Shown here one piece after another: positions 724 to 18,867 of a stretch of 64,000 bases of DNA (its first letter is position 1; each line of letters starts with the position of its first letter). The translations under genes were made by a program, and so were the position numbers. The notes under the pieces are model-generated. The model saw only the letters and a program-made list of their open reading frames with translations, was not told the origin of the DNA and did no database searches. Source of the DNA: a virus; IMG/VR virus record IMGVR_UViG_3300042987_003796, positions 20,022 to 84,021 of that record. One strand, written 5' to 3'.

Positions 724-3700
724 ATGGCTGATAATTTGACTACGGCAACAATTGATGTAAGAGCAAACACAAGGGGCTTAGAAAAAGATATTCTAAAAGC
801 TCTTAAAACCGTTGAATTTTCTGAGATAAATACAAAGAAAAGTTCGCAGGCTCTTGGTAGAATAACTGGACAGGTTTCTGAATTTAATAAAAGCCTGGAA
901 GCGTCTAATGCTCGCGTAGTTGCTTTCGGTGCGTCTGCTGGGGCTATTTTTGCTGTCGAAAAAGCTTTTTCAAGCTTAATTTCTTCTACGATAGAGGTGC
1001 AGAAAAAACTTACAGATGTAAATATTCTTCTTAATTTATCTTCCTCTGGTTTGCAAAAATTTGGAGATAGCTTATTTGATATAGCTAAAAATACAGCTCA
1101 GTCTTTTTCTACTGTTGCAGACGCCGCTACCGAGCTTTCTCGTCAGGGTCTTGGCGTTGAAGAGACATTAAAAAGAACAAATGCCGCGTTAGTTTTGACT
1201 AGACTCAGCGGACTTGATGCAAAATCTAGCGTTGATGCGTTGACCGCTACATTAAACTCTTTTGCTGGGTCTGCGCTTGATGCGGTAGAGGTAGTTAATA
1301 AATTAGCAAACGTTGACGCCGCTTTTGCTGTTAGTTCTGCTGATCTTGCCAATGCTATTAGTCGCGTTGGTTCTACTGCTGTTGATGCTGGGGTATCCTT
1401 AGATGAATTAATTGCTTTAGTTACTTCTGCTCAACAAACTACGGCGAGAGGTGGAGCTGTAATTGGTAACTCTTTTAAAACTATTTTTACGCGTTTGCAA
1501 AGAGGAAAAGTTCAAGATTTGCTTGGCTCTCTTGGGGTCGATACAACAGAAGGACAAAGTGCGATAAGTTTATTACAACAACTTGCGGCAACTTATGATA
1601 CTCTTGGAGCGGCTCAAAAATCTTACGTTGCAGAGCAGGTTGGTGGCGTTTTCCAAATCAACATTTTAAAAGCAGCTTTATCTGATTTGGGTAAGGAGTA
1701 TAGTATTTTTGGAAGAGCTTTAGATACTTCATTAAGCTCAACAGATGAAGCTATTAGAAGAAATGAACTTTTAAATCAAACTATTTCTGCCTTATCTAGT
1801 CAAGCCGTTTCTGGATTGCAGCAGGCGGCGAGCAAAATCGGCTCTATTGTTTTTGAACCTAACGCAAAGGGTTTTCTTTCTGGTTTTAATAATTTATTAG
1901 ATTCTTTTAATAATATAGATGCAGAAAGCGCTGGTGGAAAGTTAATGACTGGATTTTTTAAGGGTATTGGTGACTTTATATCTGGTCCTGGAGCAGTTTT
2001 AGCTACCGCTGTTCTTGTAAAATTATTTTCCAATTTAGCAAAATTTGCAGCTGGGTCAGCAAAAGAATTACTTGGAACTAATAAAGCTGCACAACAACAG
2101 GCTGCTATAGAGCAAAGTATTTTAAGTATACTTCAAAAGAATAGTCAATTTACTAGTCAGATCTTGAGTGGTAAAATGACAACAGTTCAGGCAGAAAAGG
2201 AATTATTGACTTATTTAACTGCTCAATCAAATATCCTTAGGGAGCAGGAAAGATTAAGCAAAATTATTGGTGCAAATTTGATGACAGCTGGAGTTAGTAT
2301 TGGGTCAAGTGGTATTCCAATTGTAGCTGCATCAAAAGGTAAAAAGGCTGCTTCATCTGGATTTATACCAAACTTTGCATCAGATCAGGCGATTGGTCAG
2401 GCGATGGAGAATGCTGGAGCTAGACAGCATGGATACAAAGCTGGAAAAGCTAAAAAAACAACTATTCATGATGGTAATGGAAAATCATTCAAATCTTTTG
2501 TTAATAGCAAAGAGGATGTAAAAACTTTTACTAATTCCGCTGGCAAGAAAGCTACAATAGTTCGTCCTCCAAATGGGTTTGGTGAAAATACTCAATATGC
2601 TGCTGGTGGATTTGTTCCTAATTTTGCAAAAAATAAAAATGAAGATTCGATAAGAAAAGGTGTGTTGTTTGAAAAACGTTTGAATAAAGCCCTTAGTGGA
2701 TCTGCCTCGTTTTCTCCTAATGCTCCAATGGATTTTCCTCTCCCAACTGGTTATGGAAATGACTATGAGATAAGAAGAAAAATTGGAATTAGTGATGCTT
2801 CTATATATGGAGATGCAAAGCTTACTAGAAGTAGAAAAAGCGAACAGAGTTTATTAGACAAATATTTAAGAACGCCAGAGGGAGTTAAGGATTTTCTTTC
2901 AGCAAAAGAAACTTCTAGAGGGTTTATTAATTTAAATCCGAATGGATTATCAATGTTGTTTTCTGGGTCTGGATCTGATTCAAGGGGCATATCTTATATT
3001 TCCAGTATAAATACTCAGCTTTCTGCTGGCGCAAAACGTTTGATTAGTTCAAGATTTGGTAAAAATCATAAAAAAAGCAGAACATTGGCAATGCCTTATA
3101 TTGCTGATAAAATAAACGAAAAAAATTTATCTGGATTAAGTTCTGGTTTTATTCCTAATTTTGGAAAAATGCAAGATCTTTATAAAAATACGAAGATGCG
3201 CGAAGGAAAGGATGATCCTTTTGGCAAAAGAGCTGCTAAGGCTAATTTAGCAGCTAAAAAGGGTATTCCAATTAAAGATCTTGGAAACTTGCCATATACA
3301 ATGATTCACCCTGGTGGTGGTAGTAATTTTCAAGCCTCTGCTAGTTATACTAAAAAAGATAAAAAAACAAATTCTTCAACTCAATATGTTGGAAAAATAT
3401 GGACTGCTGGATTAGATGCAAGCAAGTTAAATCGTAAAACTGTTCAAGATAGAGTTGGAGATGCGCTAGTTACAGAAGCAAATAATTTAACAAAAATTTT
3501 CAATCCTTCTGGGAGTGGGCAATTTAGTAACTATAGTCAGTTGTCAAATACCGGATCTGTATTTAGTGCAGCTGGCACTGTTTTTGAGTCAGCGGTCAGA
3601 AAAGCGTTTAATGTTTCTGCTCAAGGTCAAGGAGATAGGATAGATTTTCCAAATCCATCCTCTGAGCTTAGATCTTTCTTTGGAAATGCTCCAGGACCTT

Positions 3701-6700
3701 ATGAGGCAAAAATTTCAAATGACGATACAAATAGGTCAAGTACTCTTTCTAAGTGGATAGCTGTAAATGGATTAAGTGGTGGATTTATTCCTAGCTTTGC
3801 TAATTCTAAGAATAGGCTGTCATTTTCTTATAAGGATAAAGATGAATTTGGAATTAGTGAAATTGAAGCTATAATGAGCGGTAAAAAAGTTGGTTCATTT
3901 AGTTATGCGGAAGATAGACCCGGAATAGTAGATGTTGGAGACCTTACAGTTAATAAAGGAGAAAGAGGAAAGGGTATAGGGAGCGCGCTTTATAAAGAAG
4001 CAATAAAAAGAAACGCCGGCAAAAAAATGAAGGGGCAATTATTGCCACAGATGAATCGCTTATTAGAGAAAATAAAAAAAGGCGAACCCGTTTCTGCTGA
4101 GACCTTATACCCACAAATAAAGAGAGCCGATCTTGCTAAAAGTTCTGTTTTTGAGGTTTATGGGCATAAGGGTTTAGAAGCAGAAAAAATGACGCGTGAT
4201 CAGTTTACGTCATTTGTTAATGCAAAAATTACGGAATTAAAAAAAGACCCGAAAAGATTGCAAAGCTATTTTGGAAATGTAGAAGCTGACGAGTATGGCG
4301 GACTTGGAGTGGATTTACAAACTCAACATTCTTCTGGATTTATTCCTAATTTTGCAAGCGGAATAATAACTGGAGACGTCATTCGGGGAAATGAATATAA
4401 AAGCGTTTTAGATTTTCTTGCAAAAACAAATAAACCTGTTAGAACTATTATTGGTCCGTCTGGCTCTGGAAAAACAACAATGGCTTCGAAAAGTGGCGGC
4501 TCTATTGTTAAGTCATTTAACGATTTAGCGGGATTTGATAGTTATATTCTTGATAGAGCTACGATGTCTATGCCAAAAGACGAAATAGTTTCAGAAAATT
4601 TAAAAAAGATATTTCGTAAATCTGGAGAAAGCGGCGCTTTAGATTTATTGGTTGGCTCTAGAAATACTATAAAATCTTTACGCGAAAAAAGGGCAAAAGA
4701 AGGAGACTCTTTAATTCCGGATAGAAAACAATTTACTTCTGGAAGTGGAGGTATTTCATCTTTTGTAAAGGGCGCTAGGGAATTTGCGTCTGAATATCCA
4801 GGAGCTTCTGTTTCTAGAATATTTAAAGATAAGTCTGAATATAAAACAAAAAAAATATTATCAGGGGGGTTTGTTCCCAACTTTGCTTCTCCAAAATTAA
4901 TAGAAGCTATAAATAAAAGAATTAAAAATCCAAACGTTGCCCAAAAGTTAAAAGAGGGAGCTGGCTTGAATGATTCTGCTTATATGAAAGCCGCGAGTAA
5001 GCTTGGAATAGATGTTGCTGGACTAGAGGCATTCCTGCCTCAGATGGGTTTTCCTTTGCGTGGAAAAGATAAGGTATTAAACTTATCAAAAGCTATTGGT
5101 TTTGGTTTTGGTAGATCTTTCATTATAGACGCTCTTAAGATGGGGGATTGGAATTATGTTAAGCCTCAATTTGAATCCGCTGGCTATGTGAAAGATGACT
5201 TTGATAAGTTATCTAAATATGCAAAAACGCCAAAAGGCGAATCTGCCTTAAAATGGTGGAGGTCTAAATCTAGCGGGTTTATTCCAAATTTTGCTTCTCC
5301 AAAGAAAAGCGGAAAGACTTTTAATAGTTACATGAGTAAGCCTTTATCTGATACTATCAGATTCGTGCATCCTCTTAAGCCAGTTATTGATTCAAGTGGT
5401 AATATATCTTTTCCTGGGCTTCCTAAAAAGGGCGCTAAAGCTACAATCATTCATGGGGAGGCAATGGCTGGGCAGGAAAGAATGACTCTCGATGAGTTTT
5501 ATGCGCTTGCTGAAAAAAGAAAGAACGATCCAAGATTCTGGGGTAGAAACTCTTTTGAGTATGTATATAATTCAGGAGGATTTGTTCCTAATTTTGCTGA
5601 CGCATTAAATAATGCAATAGCTAGAGAAAAGTCTTCTGGGTTGTCTAATAGTCAGATATATGTTGACCAGCATAGCTCTTTAAAGAATAAAAATAACCCA
5701 ATGGGTTTAATGGTTGCTAATACTAGGGATGAGCCAGGCGGTGGAATTCAGGGCATTAAAAGAGCTAAGAAAGAGGGAAAGAATCCAAAAACTTATGGAA
5801 CATCTTTTGGGTATGTGCCTAATTTTGCAACTGGACCGATACAACCGTCTCAAGATTACTTGAATGCCTTGAATGAGGCTGTTAAGGCGGTAGATAAGCT
5901 ATCGCAAAGTTCTAAAAAAGCATCTGAGGGTTTAAATCGAGCTTCTGATAGTGTTGAGAAATTTGATAACGGAGCTTCTGGGTCTGGCAAGGGAAAAATG
6001 GGTAAGATTGGTGGATTCCTTAAAGATAATGCTTTAACTGTAGGTTTTGGTTTGCAGTCTATAGCTAGTATGGCTGGTGAATACGCTGGAAATGACGATA
6101 CTAAATCTGGTCGCGCAATTAAGGCTGGAGCAGGCGCGGTTGGAGATATTGCTAGTTTTACAGGAACTGGGGCTATGATTGCTGGACCTTGGGGGGCTGC
6201 TGCTGGTTTCGCTGTAGGATTAGGAAAAGCTGCGCTTGATTTGTCAAAAGCCTTAACTACTAAAGTTCCAGATATGGAAAAAGCTCTTCAGACTAGCTCT
6301 GATGCAATGAATAGATTTGGTGAATCTGGTCAAAAGCTATTGCAACTTAATGAGCAATATGGTGACGCGTTAAATTCTGGAAATCCTGGTCAGGCTGCTG
6401 ATATAATGGTTAAAACTCAAAAGGCGTATGCGGAAGAGTTAAGTAAATTAACTCAAGCTCAAAGAGATTCATTTATTTCAGCAGTTGCTCAGGGTAAGGG
6501 GCAAGAAGAATATGCAAAAATCCTTGGCGAAATGCAGGATTCTGTTAGAGCCTCTGAGTCGGCTTTGTCTTTGCAAAAATTTAGTGAGAGCAAGGGCTTT
6601 TTTGGTGGACCTGATAAAAAACTTATATCTGGAATAGATAAAACTTTAGTTTCTGATTTGACAAAGGGTCTTGACGCAGATGCGATTAAAAAAGCTTTAG

Positions 6701-9700
6701 AAAATGCTTCCCCTGTTCTTACTGATAAGAGCGCGGGAACAGAAAATCAAGCTATTGCATTAATGAAAAGCCTAGCTCAGTCAGAGAGTCTTACAGTAGA
6801 TCAAAAAGCTAATTTTGAAAAGATTATTGATTCTTTTGCTTCTGCGGCGGCGCAAACAGATTTAGGAGCAGTTTCTGAGGCTTTCGTTGAAGGAATTCAG
6901 TTAAAGCCTAAATCATTTGAAGATGTTCAAAAAGCTCAAGAGGCGTATAAAAAATCCCAAGAAATAAACAATGCAAAAATAAAAGAAGAGATTGCTATTA
7001 GAGAAAAAGCAAATGCTTCTTTATTGCAGCTTCAATCTGAAACGGAAGCTATATATACTAGCTTCAATGATTCTCTTGAAAGATTTATTTCTAGTGTTGA
7101 AACAGCCGCAAAAATGCGAGCTGCGTCAGTAGAGTTCAAGCAAGAATTTTATTCTGAAGGCGGAGTTCCAAGCGCCGCTGAGTCGCAAAAAGAAAAAAAT
7201 ATAGTTCAGGCTTCGAGGGATAATTTGACGGTTGATATTTATAAATCTCAAGTTGAGGCTTCTAATAATTTTAATTCCGCTGTTAAGGATTTAGTTGGAG
7301 GTCTTGATATTGACATAGCAAAGCTTGGCGTCGGCGGTCAGTCGATGGATCAGCAGAATCAGCTGCTTGGCGTACAGTCTTCTATACAGAAAGCATTGTT
7401 GCCAATTCAGGGGATGATATTAAAGGGAGACTATGAAGGGGCAAGACAAAAAACAAGCGAGGCTCTTTCTGGATTAAAGCCAGAAGAAGTTAGTGCGGTT
7501 GGCGTTGACGCGATAACAAAAGTTGGTCAGCAATTAGATCAAACATTGCAGGATAGCGCTAGGAAATTAGATCAGATTAAACAAAATTCACAAAAAGATC
7601 TTGCTATTCAAGCTCAGCAATTAGTTTTTCAAAGAGCTATGTCTAAACTTAGTCAAGCTCAAGGCTTTGGTGGAACAGACATAAAAGGTTTAATTACAGA
7701 TAATGGAGGAGAGTCATTTCAGCAGGCTATTTCTTCTTTGAAAGATCTAAAAACGTTGGGATATAATCAAAAAGATTTGCAAAAGGGGTACGTAAAGGGC
7801 GGTGGAGCTGAAACATATGGAATAAAAGATAAAAAAGCTAATGCTGCGATGAGCGGAAAAGTTATTGATTTTTATGGAGCTGCCAGTAAAATAATCGGAA
7901 GTCCTGTTTTGTCTACCCAATCTAAGGATTTTGGCGCTTTAGCTCAAGCGGTCTCAGACCAGATAAGAAACCAGATGGATAAGTTCAAGGCTGCTGGAGA
8001 AGGCGTTGTTGACCCTGCTGTTTTTAGTAGAATGGAAAAAGCTCTTGCCACATTAGGTGGGGGAGATATGGTTGCTCAGTTAAAAATATTTAAAAATATT
8101 GGAGTTGCAGATGTTGGTGGAAAGCAAGTAATGGATGAAGCTTTAAAAACTTATAGCGGTGGTCAGTTTGCAAATTTGAGCCCAGAGCTTAAGAAGGCAT
8201 TTGAAAGCACTACAGATGAAGGGGCTGCTGCTACTTTATTATTAGTCGCTGTACAAGATAAGCAAACCCAAAGTCTAAATACAGGATTTAATTTTTTATC
8301 TGGCATTGGAGGGCAAACAAATGACTTATTGTCAAAACAACCGGACGCAATCGCTGCAGCAATAGGAGCGGTTTTAGAAAAAGGTAGAGCCGATTCTGAG
8401 GCGCAAAAAGTTAATCGAGAAGCTGCGTCGCTAGACAAGCAGTTCTTTGATAGTAAGGCTAAACTGAAAGAAGCTAATAAAGGCGTCGATTCAGCTCAAG
8501 CCCAAGTTGATTCTATTGTTGAATCTTTAGGTGGAAATGCTAGTGGATCATCTATTGAGGATTTTATTAAATCCATGCAGGTTAGTCAAAAAGATAAAGA
8601 TAAGGCTAAGTCTATAACGTCTTTAGGTAGGAATGAATATATTAATTATAAAACATCGCTGGAGATGACTCCAACAGAAATATTGTCAGGGTTACCAACT
8701 CCAAGGAGCGACAAAGCCAAACAAGAGTCGGCAAAAAAATATGACGAAGCTGTGGCTCTTCAAGAAAAAGTAAAAAAACTTGATGCATTGAAAGCCGCAT
8801 CTCAGCAGGTTAGTAGTAAAAAATCTGAAGCTGTAGGTATTTCTAATGAAATAAAAGAAATCAATAAAAAATATGATGCGCTTGCGCCAGATATTCAAGC
8901 TAAAAACGATGCCGCAAAAAAGGCTTCTGAAGTTGCTGCGCAAAGCAGAAATCTAGTTCTTGATAAGAAGCCATTGCAGGATTCTATGGATTATTACGCA
9001 AATGATAAAAAAGCTAGAGAGGCTGCTTTAGCTCAATCTTTGGCGACAGAAAATCTCAAAAAAACAAAACAGCAAAAACAAACTCTAGATAGAACGTCTG
9101 GGGCAGAAAAGGCTATGAGCCCTACTGGAAAGCTAGATACTTATGAAAATATAGCGATTACTAAAGCTGGCGGCGCAAACCAAGCTGCTTTCCAAGATTT
9201 ATTGTCTCAAATGGTTGTGCCGAGTTTTGATAAATTTAAAGATGTTTATGCGTCTCTTGGAGAAGAGGGTGGAGCAAAAGGCGCTTACGAAAGAACCATA
9301 AATGAAATGATTGGACCAGCTCTTTCCCAAAAGCTGCCAATTGTAGAATCTGGATCTCAAGGTCAGCAAATAGCTTCTGCTATTACAGAGGGCATTAAGC
9401 AAGCTTCCGCCTCAGTGGTTGGTGGAGGCATTACACGCGAAGAAAATAAATCGTTGATGAGCAAACATGGGTATGTTGAAGGAGAGGGTTGGAAAAATGA
9501 AAGCGGTAAGGCGGCTTATTCTGAAGAACTTAAAATGTTAAAAGAACAAAAGCAAGCTCAGCAGCAGTTGTCTTCACAGACTAGCGCAAATAATTTACAA
9601 AAAAATGCAGAGCAAGAGCAGGCGAAAAAACAAGAAAGCGAGAAAGCTAAAGCTCAATCTGCTCAGCAAGATCCTACTCAACTTATTTCGAGTATCCTGA

Positions 9701-9987
9701 CTACGGTTCAGCAAATTTCAACCGATCTTCAAAAAAAGGCGGCTGGAACAACGGAACAGCAACCCTCTCAGTCTGGTTCCGCTGGTGGGATAAGTGTAAG
9801 CGCGCCGGTATCATTTAGTGTAAATTCAACAGCCGGAGAAGGAAAAGATGCTGCGTCTGCGATTGCGGAACAAATAAAGGTGGGGCTATCTTCATTCTTG
9901 TCTTCTCCAGAATTTATAGGAAAAGTTACATCTATTGCTAACCAAGCTGCTGGAAATAAAACTCCTCCAACTTCACTTCCTAAGTAA
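724..9987 (+). CDS. Tail tape measure protein (3087 aa) with an internal array of repeat-delimited cargo domains
   Basis: N-terminal TP901-type TMP region (AATELSRQGL, VDAAFAVSSADLANAISRVGSTA, GGAVIGNSFKTIFTRL); very long Ala/Gln/Lys-rich helical C-terminal half; hydrophobic Gly/Ala patch (GAMIAGPWGAAAGFAVG); followed by tail-like genes. Confidence 0.9.
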   Translation: MADNLTTATIDVRANTRGLEKDILKALKTVEFSEINTKKSSQALGRITGQVSEFNKSLEASNARVVAFGASAGAIFAVEKAFSSLISSTIEVQKKLTDVNILLNLSSSGLQKFGDSLFDIAKNTAQSFSTVADAATELSRQGLGVEETLKRTNAALVLTRLSGLDAKSSVDALTATLNSFAGSALDAVEVVNKLANVDAAFAVSSADLANAISRVGSTAVDAGVSLDELIALVTSAQQTTARGGAVIGNSFKTIFTRLQRGKVQDLLGSLGVDTTEGQSAISLLQQLAATYDTLGAAQKSYVAEQVGGVFQINILKAALSDLGKEYSIFGRALDTSLSSTDEAIRRNELLNQTISALSSQAVSGLQQAASKIGSIVFEPNAKGFLSGFNNLLDSFNNIDAESAGGKLMTGFFKGIGDFISGPGAVLATAVLVKLFSNLAKFAAGSAKELLGTNKAAQQQAAIEQSILSILQKNSQFTSQILSGKMTTVQAEKELLTYLTAQSNILREQERLSKIIGANLMTAGVSIGSSGIPIVAASKGKKAASSGFIPNFASDQAIGQAMENAGARQHGYKAGKAKKTTIHDGNGKSFKSFVNSKEDVKTFTNSAGKKATIVRPPNGFGENTQYAAGGFVPNFAKNKNEDSIRKGVLFEKRLNKALSGSASFSPNAPMDFPLPTGYGNDYEIRRKIGISDASIYGDAKLTRSRKSEQSLLDKYLRTPEGVKDFLSAKETSRGFINLNPNGLSMLFSGSGSDSRGISYISSINTQLSAGAKRLISSRFGKNHKKSRTLAMPYIADKINEKNLSGLSSGFIPNFGKMQDLYKNTKMREGKDDPFGKRAAKANLAAKKGIPIKDLGNLPYTMIHPGGGSNFQASASYTKKDKKTNSSTQYVGKIWTAGLDASKLNRKTVQDRVGDALVTEANNLTKIFNPSGSGQFSNYSQLSNTGSVFSAAGTVFESAVRKAFNVSAQGQGDRIDFPNPSSELRSFFGNAPGPYEAKISNDDTNRSSTLSKWIAVNGLSGGFIPSFANSKNRLSFSYKDKDEFGISEIEAIMSGKKVGSFSYAEDRPGIVDVGDLTVNKGERGKGIGSALYKEAIKRNAGKKMKGQLLPQMNRLLEKIKKGEPVSAETLYPQIKRADLAKSSVFEVYGHKGLEAEKMTRDQFTSFVNAKITELKKDPKRLQSYFGNVEADEYGGLGVDLQTQHSSGFIPNFASGIITGDVIRGNEYKSVLDFLAKTNKPVRTIIGPSGSGKTTMASKSGGSIVKSFNDLAGFDSYILDRATMSMPKDEIVSENLKKIFRKSGESGALDLLVGSRNTIKSLREKRAKEGDSLIPDRKQFTSGSGGISSFVKGAREFASEYPGASVSRIFKDKSEYKTKKILSGGFVPNFASPKLIEAINKRIKNPNVAQKLKEGAGLNDSAYMKAASKLGIDVAGLEAFLPQMGFPLRGKDKVLNLSKAIGFGFGRSFIIDALKMGDWNYVKPQFESAGYVKDDFDKLSKYAKTPKGESALKWWRSKSSGFIPNFASPKKSGKTFNSYMSKPLSDTIRFVHPLKPVIDSSGNISFPGLPKKGAKATIIHGEAMAGQERMTLDEFYALAEKRKNDPRFWGRNSFEYVYNSGGFVPNFADALNNAIAREKSSGLSNSQIYVDQHSSLKNKNNPMGLMVANTRDEPGGGIQGIKRAKKEGKNPKTYGTSFGYVPNFATGPIQPSQDYLNALNEAVKAVDKLSQSSKKASEGLNRASDSVEKFDNGASGSGKGKMGKIGGFLKDNALTVGFGLQSIASMAGEYAGNDDTKSGRAIKAGAGAVGDIASFTGTGAMIAGPWGAAAGFAVGLGKAALDLSKALTTKVPDMEKALQTSSDAMNRFGESGQKLLQLNEQYGDALNSGNPGQAADIMVKTQKAYAEELSKLTQAQRDSFISAVAQGKGQEEYAKILGEMQDSVRASESALSLQKFSESKGFFGGPDKKLISGIDKTLVSDLTKGLDADAIKKALENASPVLTDKSAGTENQAIALMKSLAQSESLTVDQKANFEKIIDSFASAAAQTDLGAVSEAFVEGIQLKPKSFEDVQKAQEAYKKSQEINNAKIKEEIAIREKANASLLQLQSETEAIYTSFNDSLERFISSVETAAKMRAASVEFKQEFYSEGGVPSAAESQKEKNIVQASRDNLTVDIYKSQVEASNNFNSAVKDLVGGLDIDIAKLGVGGQSMDQQNQLLGVQSSIQKALLPIQGMILKGDYEGARQKTSEALSGLKPEEVSAVGVDAITKVGQQLDQTLQDSARKLDQIKQNSQKDLAIQAQQLVFQRAMSKLSQAQGFGGTDIKGLITDNGGESFQQAISSLKDLKTLGYNQKDLQKGYVKGGGAETYGIKDKKANAAMSGKVIDFYGAASKIIGSPVLSTQSKDFGALAQAVSDQIRNQMDKFKAAGEGVVDPAVFSRMEKALATLGGGDMVAQLKIFKNIGVADVGGKQVMDEALKTYSGGQFANLSPELKKAFESTTDEGAAATLLLVAVQDKQTQSLNTGFNFLSGIGGQTNDLLSKQPDAIAAAIGAVLEKGRADSEAQKVNREAASLDKQFFDSKAKLKEANKGVDSAQAQVDSIVESLGGNASGSSIEDFIKSMQVSQKDKDKAKSITSLGRNEYINYKTSLEMTPTEILSGLPTPRSDKAKQESAKKYDEAVALQEKVKKLDALKAASQQVSSKKSEAVGISNEIKEINKKYDALAPDIQAKNDAAKKASEVAAQSRNLVLDKKPLQDSMDYYANDKKAREAALAQSLATENLKKTKQQKQTLDRTSGAEKAMSPTGKLDTYENIAITKAGGANQAAFQDLLSQMVVPSFDKFKDVYASLGEEGGAKGAYERTINEMIGPALSQKLPIVESGSQGQQIASAITEGIKQASASVVGGGITREENKSLMSKHGYVEGEGWKNESGKAAYSEELKMLKEQKQAQQQLSSQTSANNLQKNAEQEQAKKQESEKAKAQSAQQDPTQLISSILTTVQQISTDLQKKAAGTTEQQPSQSGSAGGISVSAPVSFSVNSTAGEGKDAASAIAEQIKVGLSSFLSSPEFIGKVTSIANQAAGNKTPPTSLPK
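2359..5829 (+). repeat. Nine dispersed in-frame peptide repeats G(F/Y)(I/V)P(N/S)F(A/G) within the TMP
   Basis: Copies start at 2359 GFIPNFA, 2608 GFVPNFA, 3145 GFIPNFG, 3781 GFIPSFA, 4336 GFIPNFA, 4867 GFVPNFA, 5275 GFIPNFA, 5578 GFVPNFA and 5809 GYVPNFA; usually preceded by SS/SG/AG. Confidence 0.95.
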
Positions 9988-9993
9988 TATTCT

Positions 9994-11643
9994 ATGAATT
10001 TTAGTAATGTAAAAGTTTTAAGCTACGAGCACAAAAATAACTTTTGGGGTGATAAAGCTTTTAGATATGGTTCTACTATTTCAATATCGATAAATGGATA
10101 TATTCTTGATTTATCCAATACTTCTGGCGTTAAGGATATTTTTCAGTCTTGCAAAAATTTATCAGACTCTTTGGGTGCTTATCAGGATATAGTTATTGAT
10201 AATGTTAATTATGGTAAGGGTAAAATAACAAACGTCTCTTTTGATTCGGGAAACTGGGTTAAGGTTACAGAGTATACTGCCTCTATAGAAATAGTTGGAG
10301 ATGGAAATCTTGGTTCTGTTAATTTTACAGATTTAGATTTTTCTAATCAAGTTATTAATGATATTAAATCAAACATTCAATATGTAGAAGAATTTAATGA
10401 GAGTTATTCTATAGACTACTCTTCTGATCAAGATTCGGTTTCTGGGGTTCATTCTATAGATTTAAAAATTTCTACTTTGTTTTCTGGAGATAAAATTAAT
10501 TTTGCAAAAAATTTAGCGTCGGCTCTTTTTTCTAAAACATTTTCCGAGAATTTATCTAAAATAACTTATTCAAAACCTTCTGAAAACTTAAGAAAAGATT
10601 TTTACTCAGAGAATTATGATTCTATAAGTGGCGCATGTGGATTCAAAAGAAGCTTTTCATATTCTAACGATTCTTCTTGTTTTAGCAGGAATAGATCTAT
10701 TTCTGTAAATTTTGGAGAAGATGGGATAACTACTGTTAGTGAATCAAATACTATAAAAGGCGAATGCATGAATGCGTCTCTTTTTGATTCGGCGGAATCT
10801 GGATTTTCTTCTGAGATTTCTGGCGTTTTTTCTCGCTGTAATGCTGCGTTTACAACTTATCAGACTCAGTTTGGATCGGTTGATCCTTTAATTAATAAGG
10901 AGATTGAAAGGTCGGTGAAAAGAAATAGATTTACTGGAGAAATAGAATATACAATATCTTTTACAAATGATAAGCGTAGAAAAAATTTATATACTTTTGA
11001 GTATGTTCTAGACTTGTCTAGATCTGAGGATTTTATATGGAGCGCCGTTGAAAATGGATCCGTGAAAGGCGATGGGATTGTGGGATCTACGGATAGATTT
11101 AATAATGCTTTGAATGGATGGAATACTGAAAAAGCAGGAATAAGTGCTAGGGTTCAATCTTTTTATACCTCTAATGCAAAAATAAAACCTATACCATCTG
11201 TATTAAATTTAATTAATAAAAATATAACTCACGCACCTTTTGAGGGATTAATATCTTATTCTTATAATTATACAGACGATTCTACACTTGATATGTCTAG
11301 CGCAATAAGAAGAAAAAGTATTAATATTACAGACTCTAAAGCTACAAGGATTCATAATGATTTTTTAATACCTGGGGGCGTGGTTAAATATGCAATCGCT
11401 CAAGCGGCTAACCAGTCAAAACAAGGGGAGAGGGAGGTAGCTGGATCTTTAGAAATATCTAGCTCCACTTTGCCATTTAAGGGCAATGATTATTTTCAGG
11501 AATGTGTAAATTTAGCTTCTTCTAATAAGGGGACTGGGACAGATTTATATTTAGAATCTTTTTCTTTTTCCTCCGACGAAATAGAGCAAAATGTAGAATT
11601 TAATGGAAAATATAAATATTCATCAGCTGCCAGTAGCAGTTAG
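9994..11643 (+). CDS. Putative tail/baseplate structural protein
   Basis: Directly after the TMP; beta-rich S/Y/F composition; apparent paralog of the next gene. Confidence 0.6.
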   Translation: MNFSNVKVLSYEHKNNFWGDKAFRYGSTISISINGYILDLSNTSGVKDIFQSCKNLSDSLGAYQDIVIDNVNYGKGKITNVSFDSGNWVKVTEYTASIEIVGDGNLGSVNFTDLDFSNQVINDIKSNIQYVEEFNESYSIDYSSDQDSVSGVHSIDLKISTLFSGDKINFAKNLASALFSKTFSENLSKITYSKPSENLRKDFYSENYDSISGACGFKRSFSYSNDSSCFSRNRSISVNFGEDGITTVSESNTIKGECMNASLFDSAESGFSSEISGVFSRCNAAFTTYQTQFGSVDPLINKEIERSVKRNRFTGEIEYTISFTNDKRRKNLYTFEYVLDLSRSEDFIWSAVENGSVKGDGIVGSTDRFNNALNGWNTEKAGISARVQSFYTSNAKIKPIPSVLNLINKNITHAPFEGLISYSYNYTDDSTLDMSSAIRRKSINITDSKATRIHNDFLIPGGVVKYAIAQAANQSKQGEREVAGSLEISSSTLPFKGNDYFQECVNLASSNKGTGTDLYLESFSFSSDEIEQNVEFNGKYKYSSAASSS

Positions 11644-11674
11644 TGTATAAATTTATATAAAGGTAATTTAAAGG

Positions 11675-13297
11675 ATGCAAGGACAAGTTAAAATATTATA
11701 TGGAAATTTGGATATATTTTCAGGAATATGTCCTACTCCTTTTGCTTACTTTGATAAAGAGTATATAGAAAATGGATCTGTTTGGGGTTCTAAATATAAT
11801 TTAAAATTAGATGGTCAGATAACCGGAAGGCTTGGGCCGGCTGCTTTTTATGACTTAGAAAATAAAAAAAATAAACTTATTTCTGGATTTAAAAATGATA
11901 GTTTATCAATAAAAATAACGGAGGACAGTGTTGATGTTTTTAATTCTGATATATGCCAGGTAGATTCTATTTCTTTTGAAGAGTCTAAATATTATGCGTT
12001 GCTACCCTTTTCTATATCGGCTTCTTGTTATGATAAAAGCTCTTTTGGGCAAAACTATGGGGTAACCAACCCTCAAGACTCTTGGGAATATTCAGAAAAT
12101 GAAGATGGTACTTTATCTTTGAGGCATTCTGTTTCTGCCGATGGATTTAATATCTCAGGCGCGTCTGCTATTTCTCAAGCTAAAAAGTGGGCTTTATCTA
12201 AAACAGGAATAAGCAATAGAGTAAGCTCTTTAAAATTTAATAATGTTTCCGCCGGTGATTTTATTCTTGATTCTTTTTCTGAACAAGTTGATAGATTTAA
12301 TGGTAAATATTCTATCGAAGAAGTTTATAAAGCTGATTTGCTTAAAACTAATTCTTTTGGAAATGGTATACTTAGATATACAGTTGATGTATCAAAAAAT
12401 ATAGAAAATGGAATTTCGGATGTTTCTATTCAGGGAAGCGTAGTCGGAAAAACAAATATTGGACTAGCTGATATGTCTGTATTGAGGGCTAAAATGAATG
12501 CAGAGAATTTTTTTCAAATTGCTGCTGAAGCCGCCTCAAAATCTACGGGTACAACAAAAATAAATGATAAGCCATACTCTAGAAGCGTCACAGAAAATCA
12601 AAATTCATCAGAGATATCTTTTTCGATAAACTATGACGATGATCCTGTTGCTCCTGGAACTGCAAAATGCATATATAAAGTAGATCTTTCTGAGAATTTA
12701 ATAAAAAATATAGTTGATATAAAGATAGACGCCGAAATTTTATGCGAGAGGGGGGACGCTTCTGTTAGGTGGAATGCCGTTAAAACTTATTACTCTAATA
12801 CGTTCAATGGATATGACTTAGCTTTAAAAGAATATAAAAGAGCTGGATATTCTAAATCTTTTAGTTCTACCCCAAAAACAGAGTCAATCAATTTTGACGA
12901 ATTTAATAGTAAAATATCATATTCTGCAAGTTGGAGCGATAGATATATGCCTTATCCAGATATTTTGACATCTATTTCTGAAAAGGTAAATATAACTCCA
13001 TCATTGAAGGTGTATGCGGTCCAGCCTTCGTTATATACAAATGGGGCGCATAATGTTCAAGATTTTGGGTGCGCAAATAGGGCTTCTGTTTCGATATCAA
13101 TAGAAGCAACGTGTAGGCCAGATAAAACAATTTCAGAATTAAAAAATTGCGTTTCTTCTGAGCTTTCTAGGCTTCGCTCTATTTATGTAAAAAATATAAA
13201 TTTATTTACAGACGAGGCAAGTGAGTCAGTAAACGAAAAACTTAAAAGAATGTCGGTTTCTTATAGTTATTCTTTTGATGGAGATATTGTTTCATAA
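11675..13297 (+). CDS. Putative tail/baseplate structural protein (paralog of the preceding gene)
   Basis: Similar length and shared motifs (DRFNGKYSI vs NRFTGEIEY; KISYSASWSD vs LISYSYNYTD). Confidence 0.6.
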   Translation: MQGQVKILYGNLDIFSGICPTPFAYFDKEYIENGSVWGSKYNLKLDGQITGRLGPAAFYDLENKKNKLISGFKNDSLSIKITEDSVDVFNSDICQVDSISFEESKYYALLPFSISASCYDKSSFGQNYGVTNPQDSWEYSENEDGTLSLRHSVSADGFNISGASAISQAKKWALSKTGISNRVSSLKFNNVSAGDFILDSFSEQVDRFNGKYSIEEVYKADLLKTNSFGNGILRYTVDVSKNIENGISDVSIQGSVVGKTNIGLADMSVLRAKMNAENFFQIAAEAASKSTGTTKINDKPYSRSVTENQNSSEISFSINYDDDPVAPGTAKCIYKVDLSENLIKNIVDIKIDAEILCERGDASVRWNAVKTYYSNTFNGYDLALKEYKRAGYSKSFSSTPKTESINFDEFNSKISYSASWSDRYMPYPDILTSISEKVNITPSLKVYAVQPSLYTNGAHNVQDFGCANRASVSISIEATCRPDKTISELKNCVSSELSRLRSIYVKNINLFTDEASESVNEKLKRMSVSYSYSFDGDIVS

Positions 13298-13303
13298 TTA
13301 TAT

Positions 13304-15265
13304 ATGTCATCTATTAATTCTTCTGGCTTTAAATATAGACTCGATTCATTAGGTATAACTAGTGAATCATTGCTTGTTGCATATGATTTTGTTTCTGGAT
13401 CTAATTTTCAGCAAGGTTTTTTAAATACTCCCCCATGGGTTACTGGCTCGACGTTTAGTGGAAAACTTAATGGAATTTATAGTAATTTTTATACAAAATC
13501 TGGAAGCGGTTATTTTAATGGGTTTAATTCTGTTTCAATCTCTGGAAAAATTCCAGAAGACGATTTTACTTTTTTATTTTGCTATGAAAAACAAAGAACG
13601 GGCGAAGAAATTTTATTGAGTTCTGCGGCCGGAGGCTCTTTTGCTTCTGCATCTGGATTGACTGTTGGAATTAATGACGCAAATAAGCTTTATTTAGAAT
13701 ACTGGAGCCCAGTAGTAGGAAAGAAAACTTTAGATTATACAGATAATATAAGCTCTAAAAATTTAGTTTTCTTTAGCAAGACATTTGATGAATTTCAATT
13801 AGGTATTTTTGATCCAATTGGCGGAGATTTATCTTTTTCTTCAGCTTCAATAGATCAAATCGAGGGATATTCTCACTCTGATTCTTTTATAATTGGGGCA
13901 AATAACTCGTCTTCTTACTGGTCTAAAGGCAGGTCTTTTAATGGATATTTTGATGATTTTTATTGTATAAGTGGTAAAAAACCGAACGACTATTTTATAG
14001 AGCTTTTTAGCGGATTTTATTCGATTCCTGTAACTGGATTGATAAGTGGTCAATATCAGGTATGTAATTATGTTTCTGTTATGAGTGGTAGCGGGGTCAA
14101 TCTAGGAACTGGGATAACGGGATATGAAACTAGGGTTACATATACTACCGGATACGTTCCAACTGGCTGTTTTAATAGTGGATACTCTTATCTTGTTGGA
14201 ACTGGAATTACTGGTTATGAGGAAAGACTTATTGGGACTCAAAAAGATGCTTGTGATCAAGACGTGCCTATATATGTAAGAACAGCGTTAACTGGAAATA
14301 TTTATGCAACTGGTTATACTTATGCCTGTAGCGGATCTGGTCAAGTAATAACGCCAACCTATACAAATTATCCATTGACCGGAATGTTAACTGGTCAAGT
14401 TTTTGTTGAGGTTCTTTCTGGTATTTGTTCTAATTTTACTGGCTATTATCCAGATGGTCTTCAATTAGATTCAGGCTTTCTATCGTCTCTCGGATTTGAT
14501 TCTGTATATTTGCTTAATCAATGCAGCAATATTGTTACGCATGAATGTTTTTTACATACTGGTGGATTTGCATCTAATAATATAAATTTAACTCCGTCTT
14601 TTGATTTAGTAGCAAATGACTGGATTATTCCAAATATTCACTCTGGCTCAGGAAAAAATTTATTTTTTAATAATGGACAGTTAATGCTAGAAAGTGGGTG
14701 GTCGTCTTATCAGGAAAAAGGTGTGACAAAATATAATATAACGGGAAATATTTTTTTGGACGGCAATATTATTAGGTCAAATGGAGACTGCAGCTTAGAA
14801 GATTCTATTATATATGATAACTCAAATTTTATTAGCGGCGTATCTGTTTATCTTTTAACCGGATTAGGGTCTTCTGCTAGTTTTAATTCTATTTTGAATT
14901 CTAGTTATCAAGATTTTTCCATTTTTCTAAATGGAGTCAAAATGACTAGTGGATTTGATTATTTTAATTCTAATTTTATTTTTAATGTGCCGCCTTCTTC
15001 TGTTTTAACTAAGGTTAATAATAATTATATTTCTGATGGTGCAAAATATATAACTGGATCTGGTAATCTTTTAACGCTGGGATCTAATGGCTCGTCTTCT
15101 TTTTTAAAAAAATCTTCTCAAGTTTATTTAAACGGCTTGAGACAATTGATAAATAGCGACTATTTTGAAATTTCTAGATTCTCTATTTTAAGTGGCTGTC
15201 CAGCTCAAGAAGTAAGCAATAACCAACTAGTATATTCTTTTAATGAAGAGTTTTGGAATATTTAA
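13304..15265 (+). CDS. Putative virion protein with an N-terminal LamG/concanavalin-like domain and TG/SG-rich region
   Basis: DDFTFLF, FIIGAN...FNGYFDDF pattern typical of LamG-like domains; VFLNG/YLNGLRQ tail-fibre-like motifs at the C-terminus. Confidence 0.55.
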   Translation: MSSINSSGFKYRLDSLGITSESLLVAYDFVSGSNFQQGFLNTPPWVTGSTFSGKLNGIYSNFYTKSGSGYFNGFNSVSISGKIPEDDFTFLFCYEKQRTGEEILLSSAAGGSFASASGLTVGINDANKLYLEYWSPVVGKKTLDYTDNISSKNLVFFSKTFDEFQLGIFDPIGGDLSFSSASIDQIEGYSHSDSFIIGANNSSSYWSKGRSFNGYFDDFYCISGKKPNDYFIELFSGFYSIPVTGLISGQYQVCNYVSVMSGSGVNLGTGITGYETRVTYTTGYVPTGCFNSGYSYLVGTGITGYEERLIGTQKDACDQDVPIYVRTALTGNIYATGYTYACSGSGQVITPTYTNYPLTGMLTGQVFVEVLSGICSNFTGYYPDGLQLDSGFLSSLGFDSVYLLNQCSNIVTHECFLHTGGFASNNINLTPSFDLVANDWIIPNIHSGSGKNLFFNNGQLMLESGWSSYQEKGVTKYNITGNIFLDGNIIRSNGDCSLEDSIIYDNSNFISGVSVYLLTGLGSSASFNSILNSSYQDFSIFLNGVKMTSGFDYFNSNFIFNVPPSSVLTKVNNNYISDGAKYITGSGNLLTLGSNGSSSFLKKSSQVYLNGLRQLINSDYFEISRFSILSGCPAQEVSNNQLVYSFNEEFWNI

Positions 15266-15291
15266 TTAAATTTTAATATAATAAAAGCAAT

Positions 15292-17709
15292 ATGGCTATA
15301 GAAACTATACCAAAAATTACTGCAACATCTGCCGGTGGCGGGGTGGTTTATTCTATTGATTTTCAAAGAAATTTTAGTAATGAGCCTTCTAAGGTGACAT
15401 ATAAGGTTGTGAATAGTTCTGGATCTTATTCTTTGCCAACGCTCGAGTCTGATGCCTCTATATCTTTTGGTAATTTTTCTTTTAATGGGTATATTTATTC
15501 TTATGAGTTAGAAGAATCTAATTCTGGTAATGTTCTCTCTATTACATTAATAGATAAGAGTGTGATTTTAGATAAGTTATATGTTTCTGTTTTTAGGCGT
15601 GGACTTATGGGGTTTAATGGAACAAAAAAAACTTTAATTGTCCCAGTTCAGTTTGATTCAGATGACGAATTTTATACAATTAAGAACATAAATGGGGTTT
15701 TTAAGCCCGTTAGAAATAATTATATAAACGGAACTGTAGCAAGAAGCGTTTATGGAGGGAGCACAAAAAGAGGGGATATAATAATAGTAGGAACAGAAGA
15801 AACTCCGGATACAAATTGTGAAATACCTTCATCTTCTTATACATTTAATGAATTGAAATCCGTAACTGGAGTAAGCGGATTTTCTTCTTGTCCTATAAAT
15901 AATAGTACTGTTAGAAAAACATATGAAGGAACCCTAAGATCCGTGCTTAATAGTTGGTGTCAAGATTTTGGTTATTCTTTTTATTGGGATTATAGTGCTA
16001 ACACTTTGAAATTTTTTGATTCAAAAAATGCAGTGTTTTCAATACCAGGTTCTATATCAGATACAAAGATAACTTCAAAAAAAACATTTGCTTCGGCTGA
16101 AGGGAAATATAATCAAGTAGCTGTAGATTATTTTGCTAAGCCATATAATCCAAAAACAGCAAGTGCATCTTTGTCTAAGACATTTTATACTACAACAGAG
16201 ATGAACTGCTATCCTCTTTCTTCTTTTATAGATAGGTCTCTAACAGGAGATGAAGATAGTATTTATGGTGGAGGAAGATCTAAGAATGAGTTTATAACTA
16301 GTGCGGCTCTTGGGTATGTTTCTCCAGCTCTTAGAAAAATTTACAATTATTCATGGATAAGTAAATGGGCTGGAAATATTGGGTTTAGTGGCTCGCTTGC
16401 TCCGCTGTCTGTTGCAAGGGTTGCCGTCGCATTAAAAGAATCTGGCAACTCTGATATTGTTAATGACATGGTTTCTTACTCTGGATACGCTGAAGCTAAT
16501 TTAGATGGAGCTTATTATGCTTTAATAGTTAAGTACGACGAAGGAACAGAAGACACATGGGCTAATTCAGAGCAAGAAATTTTTACTAGTAAAATAGGAA
16601 ATTACTATAGGTGTCCATACAATAAAAGTGGAGGATCTACTTTTTGCACTCCAAGAATGATAGTAAAAACTTCAATTAATTTTGAACCAGAAGGAGATAT
16701 GATGGAAGATAATGATAATCCTTTAGATACAAAACTAATTGGAAGGAGGGTTTTTTCTAGAGGCGGTCCGGGTCCAGAGATTTCTGGAGCTAAAGCTCTT
16801 GAAGAGCTTGGTTTAGCTGACAAAAATAGTAGCGCTGGATTGCAAAAATTATTGCCAGTTCAAATAGAGTTGCTATCTGGTTCTAAGTTAGATTTAGCGT
16901 TAAAAAATCAAGGAGTTGGGGGGTCTGGCGACACTTTATTTCTAATTCCAACTTCCGGATTAGTGTCAACAAAGCTTGGATTTGGCGCGTCTTATATTGG
17001 CGGTTATAATAAAAAAGAAACCACTTGGATAGATATAAAAAATTCTCAACAAGGCGAAGAAGAGGAATGTACTTTACAAGATCCAAATGAAAATAAATGT
17101 CTGTCTCAAAAAGACGAATTAAAACAAAAGCAGCGTAAAGCTCAAGAAGCTACTCAAAATTTTGAAACAAAAAAACCATTTTCTGGTTTAACTAGTAAAG
17201 CATCATGCGTTGGTGCGTCAATAAAAACTAGGAGTGGAAGCGTTAGAATACTTTCATCCTCTCAGTCTCAATATAGGTGTGTTGTTACGCATTCTTATTC
17301 TGTGGAGGCAATTTTAGATATTTCTGAAGCAGAAAGTATTATTTCTAATACATCTGGATCTACTTCTTCTTCACCAAAAATTATTGAAACTAGGCTCATC
17401 GTTGAAAATAGAACTACATCAGAAAAGCTATCTGCCCAAAATCCTCCAACTCCAAGCGAGCTTGCGAGCAGAAATGGTTATATTCAATCTTCAAATATTA
17501 ATAAGGTTACTTATTCTTGCGCTGGTTTTGTGCCAAGTTTGCCAACAAGTGTAAGTAGCGGTTTGGAGGCTCTTGATATGTCAATAAGTGATTCTGGGTT
17601 TTCAGCAACTTATAGTTATTCCACTCGTCCACCAGTCTTTCCGTCACAGGATTTAAATAGAATAAATAATGGATCAAATTCGTCTTCTCCGGCGTTTCAG
17701 GTTAGATAA
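15292..17709 (+). CDS. Putative tail hub/baseplate protein
   Basis: Tail module position; YEGTLRSVLNSWCQDFGYSFYWD resembles hub-protein segments. Confidence 0.5.
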   Translation: MAIETIPKITATSAGGGVVYSIDFQRNFSNEPSKVTYKVVNSSGSYSLPTLESDASISFGNFSFNGYIYSYELEESNSGNVLSITLIDKSVILDKLYVSVFRRGLMGFNGTKKTLIVPVQFDSDDEFYTIKNINGVFKPVRNNYINGTVARSVYGGSTKRGDIIIVGTEETPDTNCEIPSSSYTFNELKSVTGVSGFSSCPINNSTVRKTYEGTLRSVLNSWCQDFGYSFYWDYSANTLKFFDSKNAVFSIPGSISDTKITSKKTFASAEGKYNQVAVDYFAKPYNPKTASASLSKTFYTTTEMNCYPLSSFIDRSLTGDEDSIYGGGRSKNEFITSAALGYVSPALRKIYNYSWISKWAGNIGFSGSLAPLSVARVAVALKESGNSDIVNDMVSYSGYAEANLDGAYYALIVKYDEGTEDTWANSEQEIFTSKIGNYYRCPYNKSGGSTFCTPRMIVKTSINFEPEGDMMEDNDNPLDTKLIGRRVFSRGGPGPEISGAKALEELGLADKNSSAGLQKLLPVQIELLSGSKLDLALKNQGVGGSGDTLFLIPTSGLVSTKLGFGASYIGGYNKKETTWIDIKNSQQGEEEECTLQDPNENKCLSQKDELKQKQRKAQEATQNFETKKPFSGLTSKASCVGASIKTRSGSVRILSSSQSQYRCVVTHSYSVEAILDISEAESIISNTSGSTSSSPKIIETRLIVENRTTSEKLSAQNPPTPSELASRNGYIQSSNINKVTYSCAGFVPSLPTSVSSGLEALDMSISDSGFSATYSYSTRPPVFPSQDLNRINNGSNSSSPAFQVR

Positions 17710-17714
17710 ATTTT

Positions 17715-18845: not shown

Positions 18846-18867
18846 TAATAAAGGAGGTATTGTATTT

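Follow-up and report, generated by a model that had tools for sequence, protein, structure and literature searches.

A GNAT-related cassette within the linker-fenced array of a giant phage tape measure protein

The window analysed here is a 64,000-nucleotide stretch of an uncultured freshwater tailed phage (IMG/VR record IMGVR_UViG_3300042987_003796, positions 20,022 to 84,021). Near its start lies a single-frame ORF on the plus strand (724..9987) that encodes 3087 aa, which we identified as a tape measure protein (TMP) hosting an array of cassettes. In addition to the ORF list, this assignment draws on a whole-protein Pfam scan in which aa 120-308 matched PF10145 (E 9e-24), on matches of the ORF to PHROG TMP families (E 1.6e-40 to 9.7e-13), and on the JGI name carried by its relatives, 'TP901 family phage tail tape measure protein'. 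The seven ORFs around the TMP (upstream 2-655, downstream 9994-19443) returned no match in the PHROG search. Megablast and tblastn searches with the region and with the module described below gave zero matches against 50,697 phage records, and the N-terminus of the TMP is at most 27.5% identical to the TMPs of Bacillus phages; the phage therefore appears to have no cultured relative. Between 65 and 78% of the sampled words were present in eight DNA sequencing runs from five other studies, all of them labelled freshwater metagenome, while none of the RNA sequencing runs was listed as carrying these words.

The TMP is punctuated by a linker peptide with the consensus G(F/Y)(I/V)P(N/S)F(A/G), of which eight copies were found using a strict pattern and nine using a relaxed one (relaxed copies starting at aa 546, 629, 808, 1020, 1205, 1382, 1518, 1619 and 1696). 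Eight cassettes, each fenced by linkers, make up the array. Copies 4 (GFIPSFA; 3781..3801) and 5 (GFIPNFA; 4336..4356), both located on the plus strand by motif scans and translation, exactly enclose the cassette of interest, cassette C (3802..4335, plus strand), which was delineated from its translation, its homologues and their dN/dS. Its stop-free translation of 178 aa corresponds to TMP aa 1027-1204 and includes the strings quoted in the initial annotation. That annotation had placed a GNAT acetyltransferase module inside the TMP, between the fourth and fifth repeats, and both placements hold: the module forms a discrete cassette, and the 3087-aa ORF around it has PF10145 and PHROG TMP matches. 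At the DNA level, linker copy 4 matches its reference copy (family D2) at only 84%, so it is the peptide that is conserved.

All eight cassettes are basic (pI 9.3-10.0) regardless of family, the GNAT-like cassette having a pI of 9.3. Compared with the helical parts of the TMP, the array contains more proline (4.6% versus 0.6-2.2%) and more tyrosine (3.1% versus 0.7-1.9%), and it is flanked by hydrophobic segments at aa 414-444, 517-537 and 1815-1834. Relatives number at least 2564 in all; among 44 relatives, 33 cassette clusters were named. The Pfam content of the window's TMP consists of PF10145 and weak GNAT and P-loop matches, and that of five other giant relatives of PF10145 and GNAT only; no Pfam enzyme family was found at E<=0.001 in the other cassettes of these proteins. 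As those cassettes have no Pfam enzyme match, the picture of an array of enzymes rests mainly on the GNAT cassette and a bare Walker A motif.

The initial annotation had also reported an acetyl-CoA-binding motif A, and this is present in cassette C as RGKGIG (module R55-G56-K57-G58-I59-G60; nt 3964..3981, plus strand), which was read from the translation, is borne out by its conservation and fits the pattern Q/R-x-x-G-x-G/A. When the module was searched alone, PF00583 scored 22.2 bits against a curated cut-off of 20.7 (E 1.7e-4), with module aa 23-70 aligned to profile positions 38-87 of 116 only. Within the whole-TMP scan the same family reached 17.6 bits, under its cut-off, as did every other GNAT model relative to its own (E 0.003-0.04), and the best GNAT match of a PDB search with the single sequence had an E of only 0.19. 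Scores this low are what would be seen if there were no GNAT relationship at all and a glycine-rich loop in ordinary TMP sequence resembled motif A by chance. We regard this as very improbable, since the signal sharpens when homologues are considered: at E<=0.01, PF00583 matched 14/14 aligned homologues (best 4.3e-8), PF13508 14/14 and PF14542 13/14 (best 7.8e-7). Using hhalign, module aa 4-72 aligned to the canonical GNAT protein P0023 with an E of 7.3e-7, and aa 5-72 to canonical GNAT with an E of 3.5e-8 (68 columns, 35% identity), at probabilities of 91.8-95.0% across two runs. An invariant motif A and an array composition in proline and tyrosine that is unlike the helical TMP parts likewise argue against a chance loop.

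Profile searches of the PDB gave a consistent result, with acetyltransferases as the best matches (1y9k, E 2.3e-4; YjdJ, 5i0c, E 4.6e-3; 1yr0, E 6.5e-3) and 16 of the 35 rows at E<=10 bearing an acetyltransferase name. The nearest Atlas clusters were small viral GNATs (score 0.93), and 10/10 of the best matches there were GNATs, a result that is weak by the tool's own caveat. PF14542 (Acetyltransf_CG) reached 19.3 bits against a cut-off of 30, over positions 9-52 of 80, and 20 bits in the genome search. A hydrophobic-periodicity map, itself crude, showed a strand-helix pattern that fits module aa 40-73. By sequence comparison, module aa 4-72 (3811..4017, plus strand), which would span beta strands, the motif A loop and the next helix, is clearly homologous to the GNAT beta-strand core with its acetyl-CoA motif A, a delimitation that draws on hhalign, PF00583 and the PDB profiles.

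The relationship does not extend over the whole module. In every search the GNAT matches were confined to module aa about 4-86, and the resemblance covers only ~70-80 of the 178 aa. All Pfam matches end near position 87 of 116 of the PF00583 profile, ahead of beta5-alpha4 (motif B), and no sequence search aligned this region or the C-terminal strands past module aa about 86. At the other end, the N-terminal beta1-alpha1-alpha2 lobe is absent: the first Pfam-aligned residue comes only ~22 residues after the upstream linker, and the alpha1-alpha2 substrate lobe is therefore judged to be missing. The hhalign alignment begins at module aa 4-5 and pairs these residues with a strand and loop of P0023. 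None of the residues of the module could be identified as catalytic. Across the profile searches, the GNAT identity proposed in the initial annotation is supported for aa 4-72; the C-terminal 106 aa showed no GNAT similarity by sequence comparison, by which a divergent motif B may have been missed.

This C-terminal half (module aa 73-178; 4018..4335, plus strand) is family-specific and is the better conserved of the two, with a mean identity to the window of 82% versus 61% for aa 1-72. Its invariant residues are G73, G78, P82, Q83, P104, Q105, R108, A109, K113, F135, L172 and T174. It had no usable Atlas match, and hhalign against the canonical GNAT C-terminus returned a probability of 0.2%, in a test that is shallow because the relatives search of P0023 returned only P0133. 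A by-eye pairing of YPQIKRADLAKSSVFEV with the alpha4-beta6 segment of P0023 was dropped on the basis of this 0.2% probability. A match of the C-terminal half to calbindin D9k (E 0.01) was treated as chance, as were matches to NEQ131 (E 0.0016 with the single sequence, 0.26 with the profile) and to citrate synthase (E 0.02-0.12).

A search of 1.84 billion representatives identified 14 homologues at E<=1e-30. Within the close clade, the cassette is present in 42/44 TMPs, with two copies in P0042, and it follows cassette B in 42/42, directly in 30 and with one or two cassettes between in 12. Conservation of the motif among homologues, on which the initial annotation had staked its reading, was found throughout: all 44 distinct cassettes, including variants of 31-36% identity, keep R-G-x-G-x-[G/S/A], with R55, G56 and G58 invariant and G, S or A at position 60. 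The cassette evolves under purifying selection: its dN/dS is 0.054-0.178 between the window and five loci, and 0.054-0.254 over the 13 pairs that could be computed. Its mean identity to the window is 78.5%, and the C-terminal 1385 aa of the TMP are 24-57% identical in 37/41 relatives and 85-87% identical in three, with one relative giving no match. Comparison of the cassette with the TMP N-terminus for exchange gave a Spearman rho of 0.40, which we note as a hint.

The cassette was found only within giant TMP-like proteins or gene fragments. When solo forms of 62-356 aa were sought by profile, four matches were obtained, all on contigs <=1.5 kb; we interpret them as fragments of genes and not as solo genes. 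A scan of genome contigs for bacterial occurrences gave 88 pattern matches, none of which was confirmed. As the GC content of the cassette (0.355-0.370) is unremarkable against the TMP, its base composition gives no indication of a recent foreign source. Two paralogous cassettes, O and P0027-m4, retain the LPQ...YPQ scaffold, but their motif A has decayed to KGQGLE or PGAGAG, and the scaffold can therefore persist without a canonical CoA loop.

We give about an even chance to the explanation that the cassette is a stripped-down GNAT-derived acyltransferase that travels in the tail and leaves it together with the TMP. This reading starts from the GNAT homology of aa 4-72, the conservation of motif A, the purifying selection, the cassette boundaries and the restriction to TMPs. 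A less probable alternative, though one that we take seriously, is that the cassette is GNAT-derived yet non-catalytic and has a ligand-binding or purely architectural role in the TMP. It might fill or space the lumen, act as a plug, help in assembly or, by folding on the far side of the membrane (perhaps on binding CoA), keep the expelled TMP from sliding back. Such a role would account for GNAT similarity that stops after the motif A helix, for a non-GNAT half that is the most conserved part (82% versus 61% mean identity), and for the paralogous cassettes with LPQ...YPQ and without canonical motif A. Its occurrence in 42/44 close-clade TMPs, after cassette B in each, also looks more like that of a core part than of an optional effector, the basic pI of 9.3-10.0 is common to all eight cassettes, and the other cassettes carry no enzyme signature. 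On the other hand, the invariance of R55, G56 and G58 in 44/44 cassettes, together with a small residue at position 60, matches what a functional loop for the CoA pyrophosphate would need, and the invariant polar residues Q83, Q105, R108 and K113 are more in keeping with a site for ligand or catalysis than with filler. Nor does the missing lobe speak for an inert module, as minimal GNATs without alpha1-alpha2 exist (PF14542; match to YjdJ).

If the cassette is an acyltransferase, its kind of substrate is the next consideration. GNAT toxins such as TacT and AtaT acetylate aminoacyl-tRNA, and the initial annotation had drawn an analogy to them. A toxin of this type would stop host translation at entry, and the module does have a GNAT core with motif A and a basic pI (9.3) that would suit nucleic-acid binding, although these are general points only. 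The more specific comparisons point elsewhere: 0/35 PDB rows at E<=10 were toxin-named, no toxin family was among the NCBIfam matches, and the cassette does not have the full-length GNAT body of such toxins. The recurrent weak named match was instead RimI, a protein N-acetyltransferase, which was the commonest (10/14 members; best E 4e-4, far below cut-off). GNAT toxins of toxin-antitoxin systems are also encoded by a stand-alone gene with an adjacent antitoxin, whereas the present domain lies inside an ORF of 3087 aa. We therefore consider the toxin reading improbable. Overall, the observation made in the initial annotation is confirmed, and its interpretation is partly supported.

Under the acyltransferase explanation, the cassette would descend from a GNAT acyltransferase and form one module of the linker-fenced TMP array. 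It would have retained the elements that hold acetyl-CoA (the beta-strand core and the pyrophosphate-binding loop of motif A), lost the usual N-terminal helices, and gained a highly conserved C-terminal half of its own. We infer that the fold is completed and catalytic, and we propose a course for its delivery, topology and target. The cassette would be synthesised late, within the TMP, and housed in the tail lumen. At infection it would be expelled along with the TMP and would end up on the cytoplasmic side, because acetyl-CoA is available only there. There it would acetylate an amine of the host or the phage, most likely one carried by a protein, ahead of any phage gene expression. With the first half of the module related to GNATs by sequence, the tail may bring a pre-formed modifying enzyme to the host cell.

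A broader proposal, which we offer tentatively and rate as rather less than an even prospect, is that the TMP of this large clade of aquatic phages is a plug-in delivery platform and that the near-universal GNAT cassette is an active, pre-made acetyltransferase acting in the first seconds of infection on a component of host defence, transcription or translation. Cargo of Hcp-type tube lumens is subject to a size limit, tube lumens are electronegative, and TMPs such as those of TM4 and T5 (pb2) contain peptidoglycan-hydrolase motifs. Strung on the conserved linker peptide, the cassettes would be folded and basic, and at roughly 70-250 aa in most cases and up to 484 aa in a few they would fit the lumen of the tail tube and enter ahead of the DNA. 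In a bolder variant, the acetyl-CoA-binding cassette and the adjacent ATP-binding P-loop cassette would fold on cytoplasmic metabolites and so act as a ratchet pulling the TMP and DNA inward. Were the cassette both active and delivered, the tail ruler of long-tailed phages would itself hold an enzyme that modifies proteins and could act before phage transcription, and an array fenced by linkers would lend itself naturally to loading tails with cargo. Our claim is modest for now, since the domain is detectable by standard profiles and JGI labels 3/120 of the relatives listed 'predicted GNAT family acetyltransferase'; precomputed PF14542 labels were present for 2/120 of these (P0042 and P0014).

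Among known GNATs, the closest in form are the minimal GNATs of PF14542 (E. coli YjdJ, PDB 5i0c), which like the cassette are small and do not have the N-terminal helical lobe; the C-terminal part of that family is unmatched by the cassette, and the score is under its cut-off. YjdJ and RibT are GNAT-fold proteins. A search of CC-licensed PMC and bioRxiv papers, by title or start of abstract, found nothing on point for a TMP-GNAT fusion or for a TMP as a polyvalent protein.

The polyvalent proteins of phages and conjugative elements are described as including RimI-like GNAT domains (Iyer et al. 2017, PMC5512222), and RimI is also the commonest weak named match of the cassette (10/14). There too, a GNAT-type domain is one of many in a giant phage polypeptide that is believed to accompany the DNA into the host, and the combination of many unrelated domains in one polypeptide is found here in the form of eight cassettes. 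In contrast, the carrier here is a TMP, whereas 'tape measure' has 0 occurrences in the main text of that paper, and the GNAT domain is truncated to a motif A core with a private C-terminal half and fenced by linkers. The hallmark companion domains of polyvalent proteins (processing peptidases, ArdC-N, methylases, helicases and others) were not found by Pfam in the window's TMP. If the acyltransferase reading is true, tape measure proteins would be linked to the polyvalent-protein concept. The contractile injection system effector Sle1 offers a second parallel, in that a TMP-related scaffold in a tail-like tube is reported to carry exchangeable functional domains (PMC13277306, whose abstract does not mention GNAT). 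Sle1 is the effector of a bacterial nanomachine with one C-terminal functional domain, while the array described here is internal to a phage ruler and holds multiple cassettes.

The single experimental precedent is gp96 of Thermus phage P23-45, a 5002-aa TMP whose fused virion RNA polymerase is active and transcribes the pre-early genes (Chaban et al. 2024, PMC10770324). Its authors describe the association of a TMP with an enzyme as previously unsuspected and propose that the enzyme operates at the TMP pore during DNA entry. As in gp96, an enzyme that would act in the cytoplasm lies in a giant TMP with membrane segments, and here the putative enzyme domain is likewise within the TMP polypeptide, predicted from a single ORF with no stops. 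The two differ in that gp96 has a large N-terminal RNA polymerase of demonstrated activity, while the present TMP has an internal 178-aa cassette, a putative enzyme and one of eight. If our reading is true, it would extend the precedent of P23-45 to small, swappable enzyme modules.

The plus-strand open reading frame at 724–9987 was identified from its sequence as encoding a tape measure protein (TMP) of 3087 aa: residues 120–308 match PF10145 (E = 9e-24), the frame matches PHROG TMP families (best E = 1.6e-40), and there are relatives that carry the JGI label 'TP901 family phage tail tape measure protein'. The window corresponds to bases 20022–84021 of an 84-kb IMG/VR record with a CheckV completeness of 55%. 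Between residues 546 and 1702 (window 2359–5829), the TMP carries nine copies of the linker peptide G(F/Y)(I/V)P(N/S)F(A/G) under a relaxed pattern and eight under the strict one; since these copies are only 61–84% alike as DNA, the linker is conserved at the peptide level. All eight cassettes of this array are basic (pI 9.3–10.0), the whole 3087-aa TMP has no cysteine, and hydrophobic segments lie upstream (residues 414–444 and 517–537) and downstream (residues 1815–1834) of the array. Pro, Tyr and Phe are also more frequent in the array than in the Ala/Leu/Gln-rich regions of the TMP on either side of it. The C-terminal 1385 aa (residues 1703–3087, window 5830–9987) are 24–57% identical in 37 of 41 relatives, 85–87% identical in three and without a match in one; this part diverges much faster than the N-terminal 545 aa (73–96%) or the GNAT cassette (53–88%).

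The GNAT-like module, cassette C, occupies 3802–4335 (+; TMP residues 1027–1204) and lies exactly between linker copies 4 and 5. The initial annotation, which had placed a GNAT module here between repeats 4 and 5, was borne out: the 178-aa translation is free of stops and contains the strings quoted there as well as the motif A sequence RGKGIG (3964–3981, +). The motif is also conserved among homologues, contrary to the outcome that would have refuted the initial annotation. From the collected proteins we extracted 45 such cassettes, 44 of them distinct, and R55, G56 and G58 (module numbering) are invariant in all 44, with G, S or A at position 60. Motif A is retained even in short variants at 31–36% identity (L007/L008, P0021 and P0055). 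Cassette C is under purifying selection, with dN/dS values of 0.054–0.178 against five IMG/VR loci and 0.054–0.254 over all 13 computable pairs; two pairs were saturated.

Searching with the TMP N-terminus yielded 2564 relatives at E ≤ 1e-10 among 8000 scored candidates, and the distribution counts were drawn from the best 120 of these. Cassette C is present in 42 of the 44 listed TMPs with at least 73% N-terminal identity (the close clade), and among the 76 at 55–60% a short variant occurs only in P0055. One TMP, P0042, carries two full GNAT cassettes (residues 1278–1475 and 1755–1951) with a 285-aa cassette between them. The only close-clade TMPs without the canonical cassette, P0051 and P0027, both carry diverged paralogues: cassette O (173–174 aa; in P0028, P0029, P0049 and P0051) and residues 1025–1172 of P0027. 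These retain the (L/V)PQ ... (Y/F)PQ scaffold, and their motif A has decayed to KGQGLE and PGAGAG, respectively. No solo form of the cassette was found, the four short matches all lying on contigs of at most 1.5 kb, and a contig search did not find it in bacterial genomes.

When the 44 close-clade TMPs were split at the linker and the pieces clustered, linkers coincided with cassette boundaries in every case and a conserved order emerged: cassette A (first, 76 aa in 41 of 44), at least one variable cassette, cassette B (~200 aa), in some TMPs one or two insertions of further cassettes, cassette C (170–179 aa), further variable cassettes and cassette D (70–72 aa, last in 41 of 44). Cassette identity tracks N-terminal identity loosely (Spearman rho = 0.40), which suggests that cassette variants are reassorted among lineages. 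The cassette following the module (cluster G; window 4357–4866, TMP residues 1212–1381) has a Walker A motif, GPSGSGKTT, and occurs in 15 of the 44 TMPs; its matches to 15 P-loop NTPase families are sub-threshold (E = 0.02–0.19). Apart from these two, no cassette in this TMP or in five further giant relatives matched a Pfam family at E ≤ 0.001. With only the GNAT cassette and an isolated Walker A motif to point to, the idea of an enzyme array has less behind it than first impressions suggest.

Homology of module residues 4–72 to the GNAT strand core and motif A helix is well supported by several profile and sequence comparisons. In the profile search that the initial annotation proposed, the module alone exceeds the PF00583 cut-off (22.2 versus 20.7 bits, E = 1.7e-4); it is below cut-off for PF13508 (21.4 versus 27), PF14542 (19.3 versus 30) and PF13673, as are all four families when the whole TMP is scanned. 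When 1.84 billion representatives were searched exhaustively with phmmer, 21 matched at E ≤ 1e-3, including 14 at E ≤ 1e-30, of which 13 are proteins of 1783–3894 aa and one has 447 aa. In an alignment of the module with 13 of the 21 matches, PF00583 (best E = 4.3e-8) and PF13508 are found at E ≤ 0.01 in 14/14 members and PF14542 in 13/14; RimI recurs as a weak named match (10/14, best E = 4e-4) that falls well short of its cut-off. Acetyltransferases head the PDB profile search (1y9k, E = 2.3e-4; the minimal GNAT YjdJ, 4.6e-3; 1yr0, 6.5e-3) and account for 16 of its 35 rows by name. Neither the PDB nor the NCBIfam matches lend specific support to the tRNA-toxin analogy drawn initially. In the weak phmmer match P0023, PF00583 recognises a GNAT domain of canonical type (E = 8.3e-21, profile positions 4–111 of 116), and hhalign pairs the cassette with it over 68–69 columns at 35% identity (probability 91.8–95.0%, E = 7.3e-7 and 3.5e-8). 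These Pfam, alignment, PDB profile and hhalign matches exclude a chance resemblance. The ESM Atlas neighbours are small viral GNAT clusters (score 0.93), weak evidence by the tool's own caveats. The nearest canonical GNAT relatives of the cassette, P0023 (1407 aa) and P0133 (540 aa), are large proteins that carry the domain C-terminally and have no other annotation; in P0023, residues 551–625 form a second GNAT-like stretch.

All GNAT alignments end near module residues 72–86 (PF00583 position ~87 of 116), before β5-α4 (motif B). Conservation is highest in the last 106 aa of the module (mean identity to the window 82% versus 61% for residues 1–72), where G73, G78, P82, Q83, P104, Q105, R108, A109, K113, F135, L172 and T174 are invariant. 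This half may complete a GNAT fold or may make up a subdomain of its own. Residues 73–178 gave no usable Atlas match and an hhalign probability of 0.2% against a canonical GNAT C-terminus, and their matches to calbindin D9k, NEQ131 and citrate synthase are at chance level. The weak, gap-free likeness of residues 113–164 (window 4138–4293) to calbindin D9k/S100-type EF-hand helices (E = 0.01 by profile, 0.34 by single sequence) is probably fortuitous; no calcium loop of canonical type is visible there. The apparent lack of a motif B, the stronger conservation of the non-GNAT half, the paralogues with decayed motif A and the nearly constant place of the cassette in TMPs all favour the main alternative, a module of GNAT origin that serves binding or architecture rather than catalysis, which we consider possible but rather unlikely.

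We give an even chance to the proposal that the cassette is an acyltransferase of GNAT descent in pared-down form. As such, it would be synthesised as part of the TMP, kept in the tail lumen, expelled at infection and active in the cytoplasm, where acetyl-CoA is available; its target may be an amine of the host or the phage, most likely one carried by a protein. The analysis shows the homology, the conserved motif, the purifying selection, the cassette structure and the TMP identity; fold completion, catalysis and topology, like delivery and target, are inferred.

Eight DNA runs from five studies, all labelled freshwater metagenome, hold 65–78% of the sampled words of window 3000–6000, a measure of shared words in a count that leaves out the possible source sample. 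Around the TMP, none of seven ORFs (one upstream, 2–655; six large ones downstream, 9994–19443) matched a PHROG at E ≤ 0.001; a convergent gene at 19450–20688 (−) matches the glycosyltransferase PHROG 24687 over its full length (E = 2e-181).

Automatic annotation already detects the GNAT domain in TMP relatives: among the best 120, three bear the JGI name 'predicted GNAT family acetyltransferase' and six have precomputed PF00583 or PF14542 labels. In the main texts of open-licence papers and preprints, we came across no description of a TMP with a GNAT domain. Cassette C has only ~22 residues ahead of the first strand that aligns and so, like minimal GNATs, lacks the α1-α2 lobe. GNAT domains have been described in injected phage polyvalent proteins (PMC5512222; cited also in PMC7824862); the main text of PMC5512222 does not use 'tape measure', and a Pfam scan found no hallmark polyvalent-protein domains in the window TMP. 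TMP-related modular effectors are known from a contractile injection system (PMC13277306). One experimental precedent for a cytoplasm-acting enzyme on a TMP comes from Thermus phage P23-45, whose TMP of 5002 aa has at its N-terminus an active virion RNA polymerase responsible for transcription of the pre-early genes, an association that its authors term previously unsuspected (PMC10770324).
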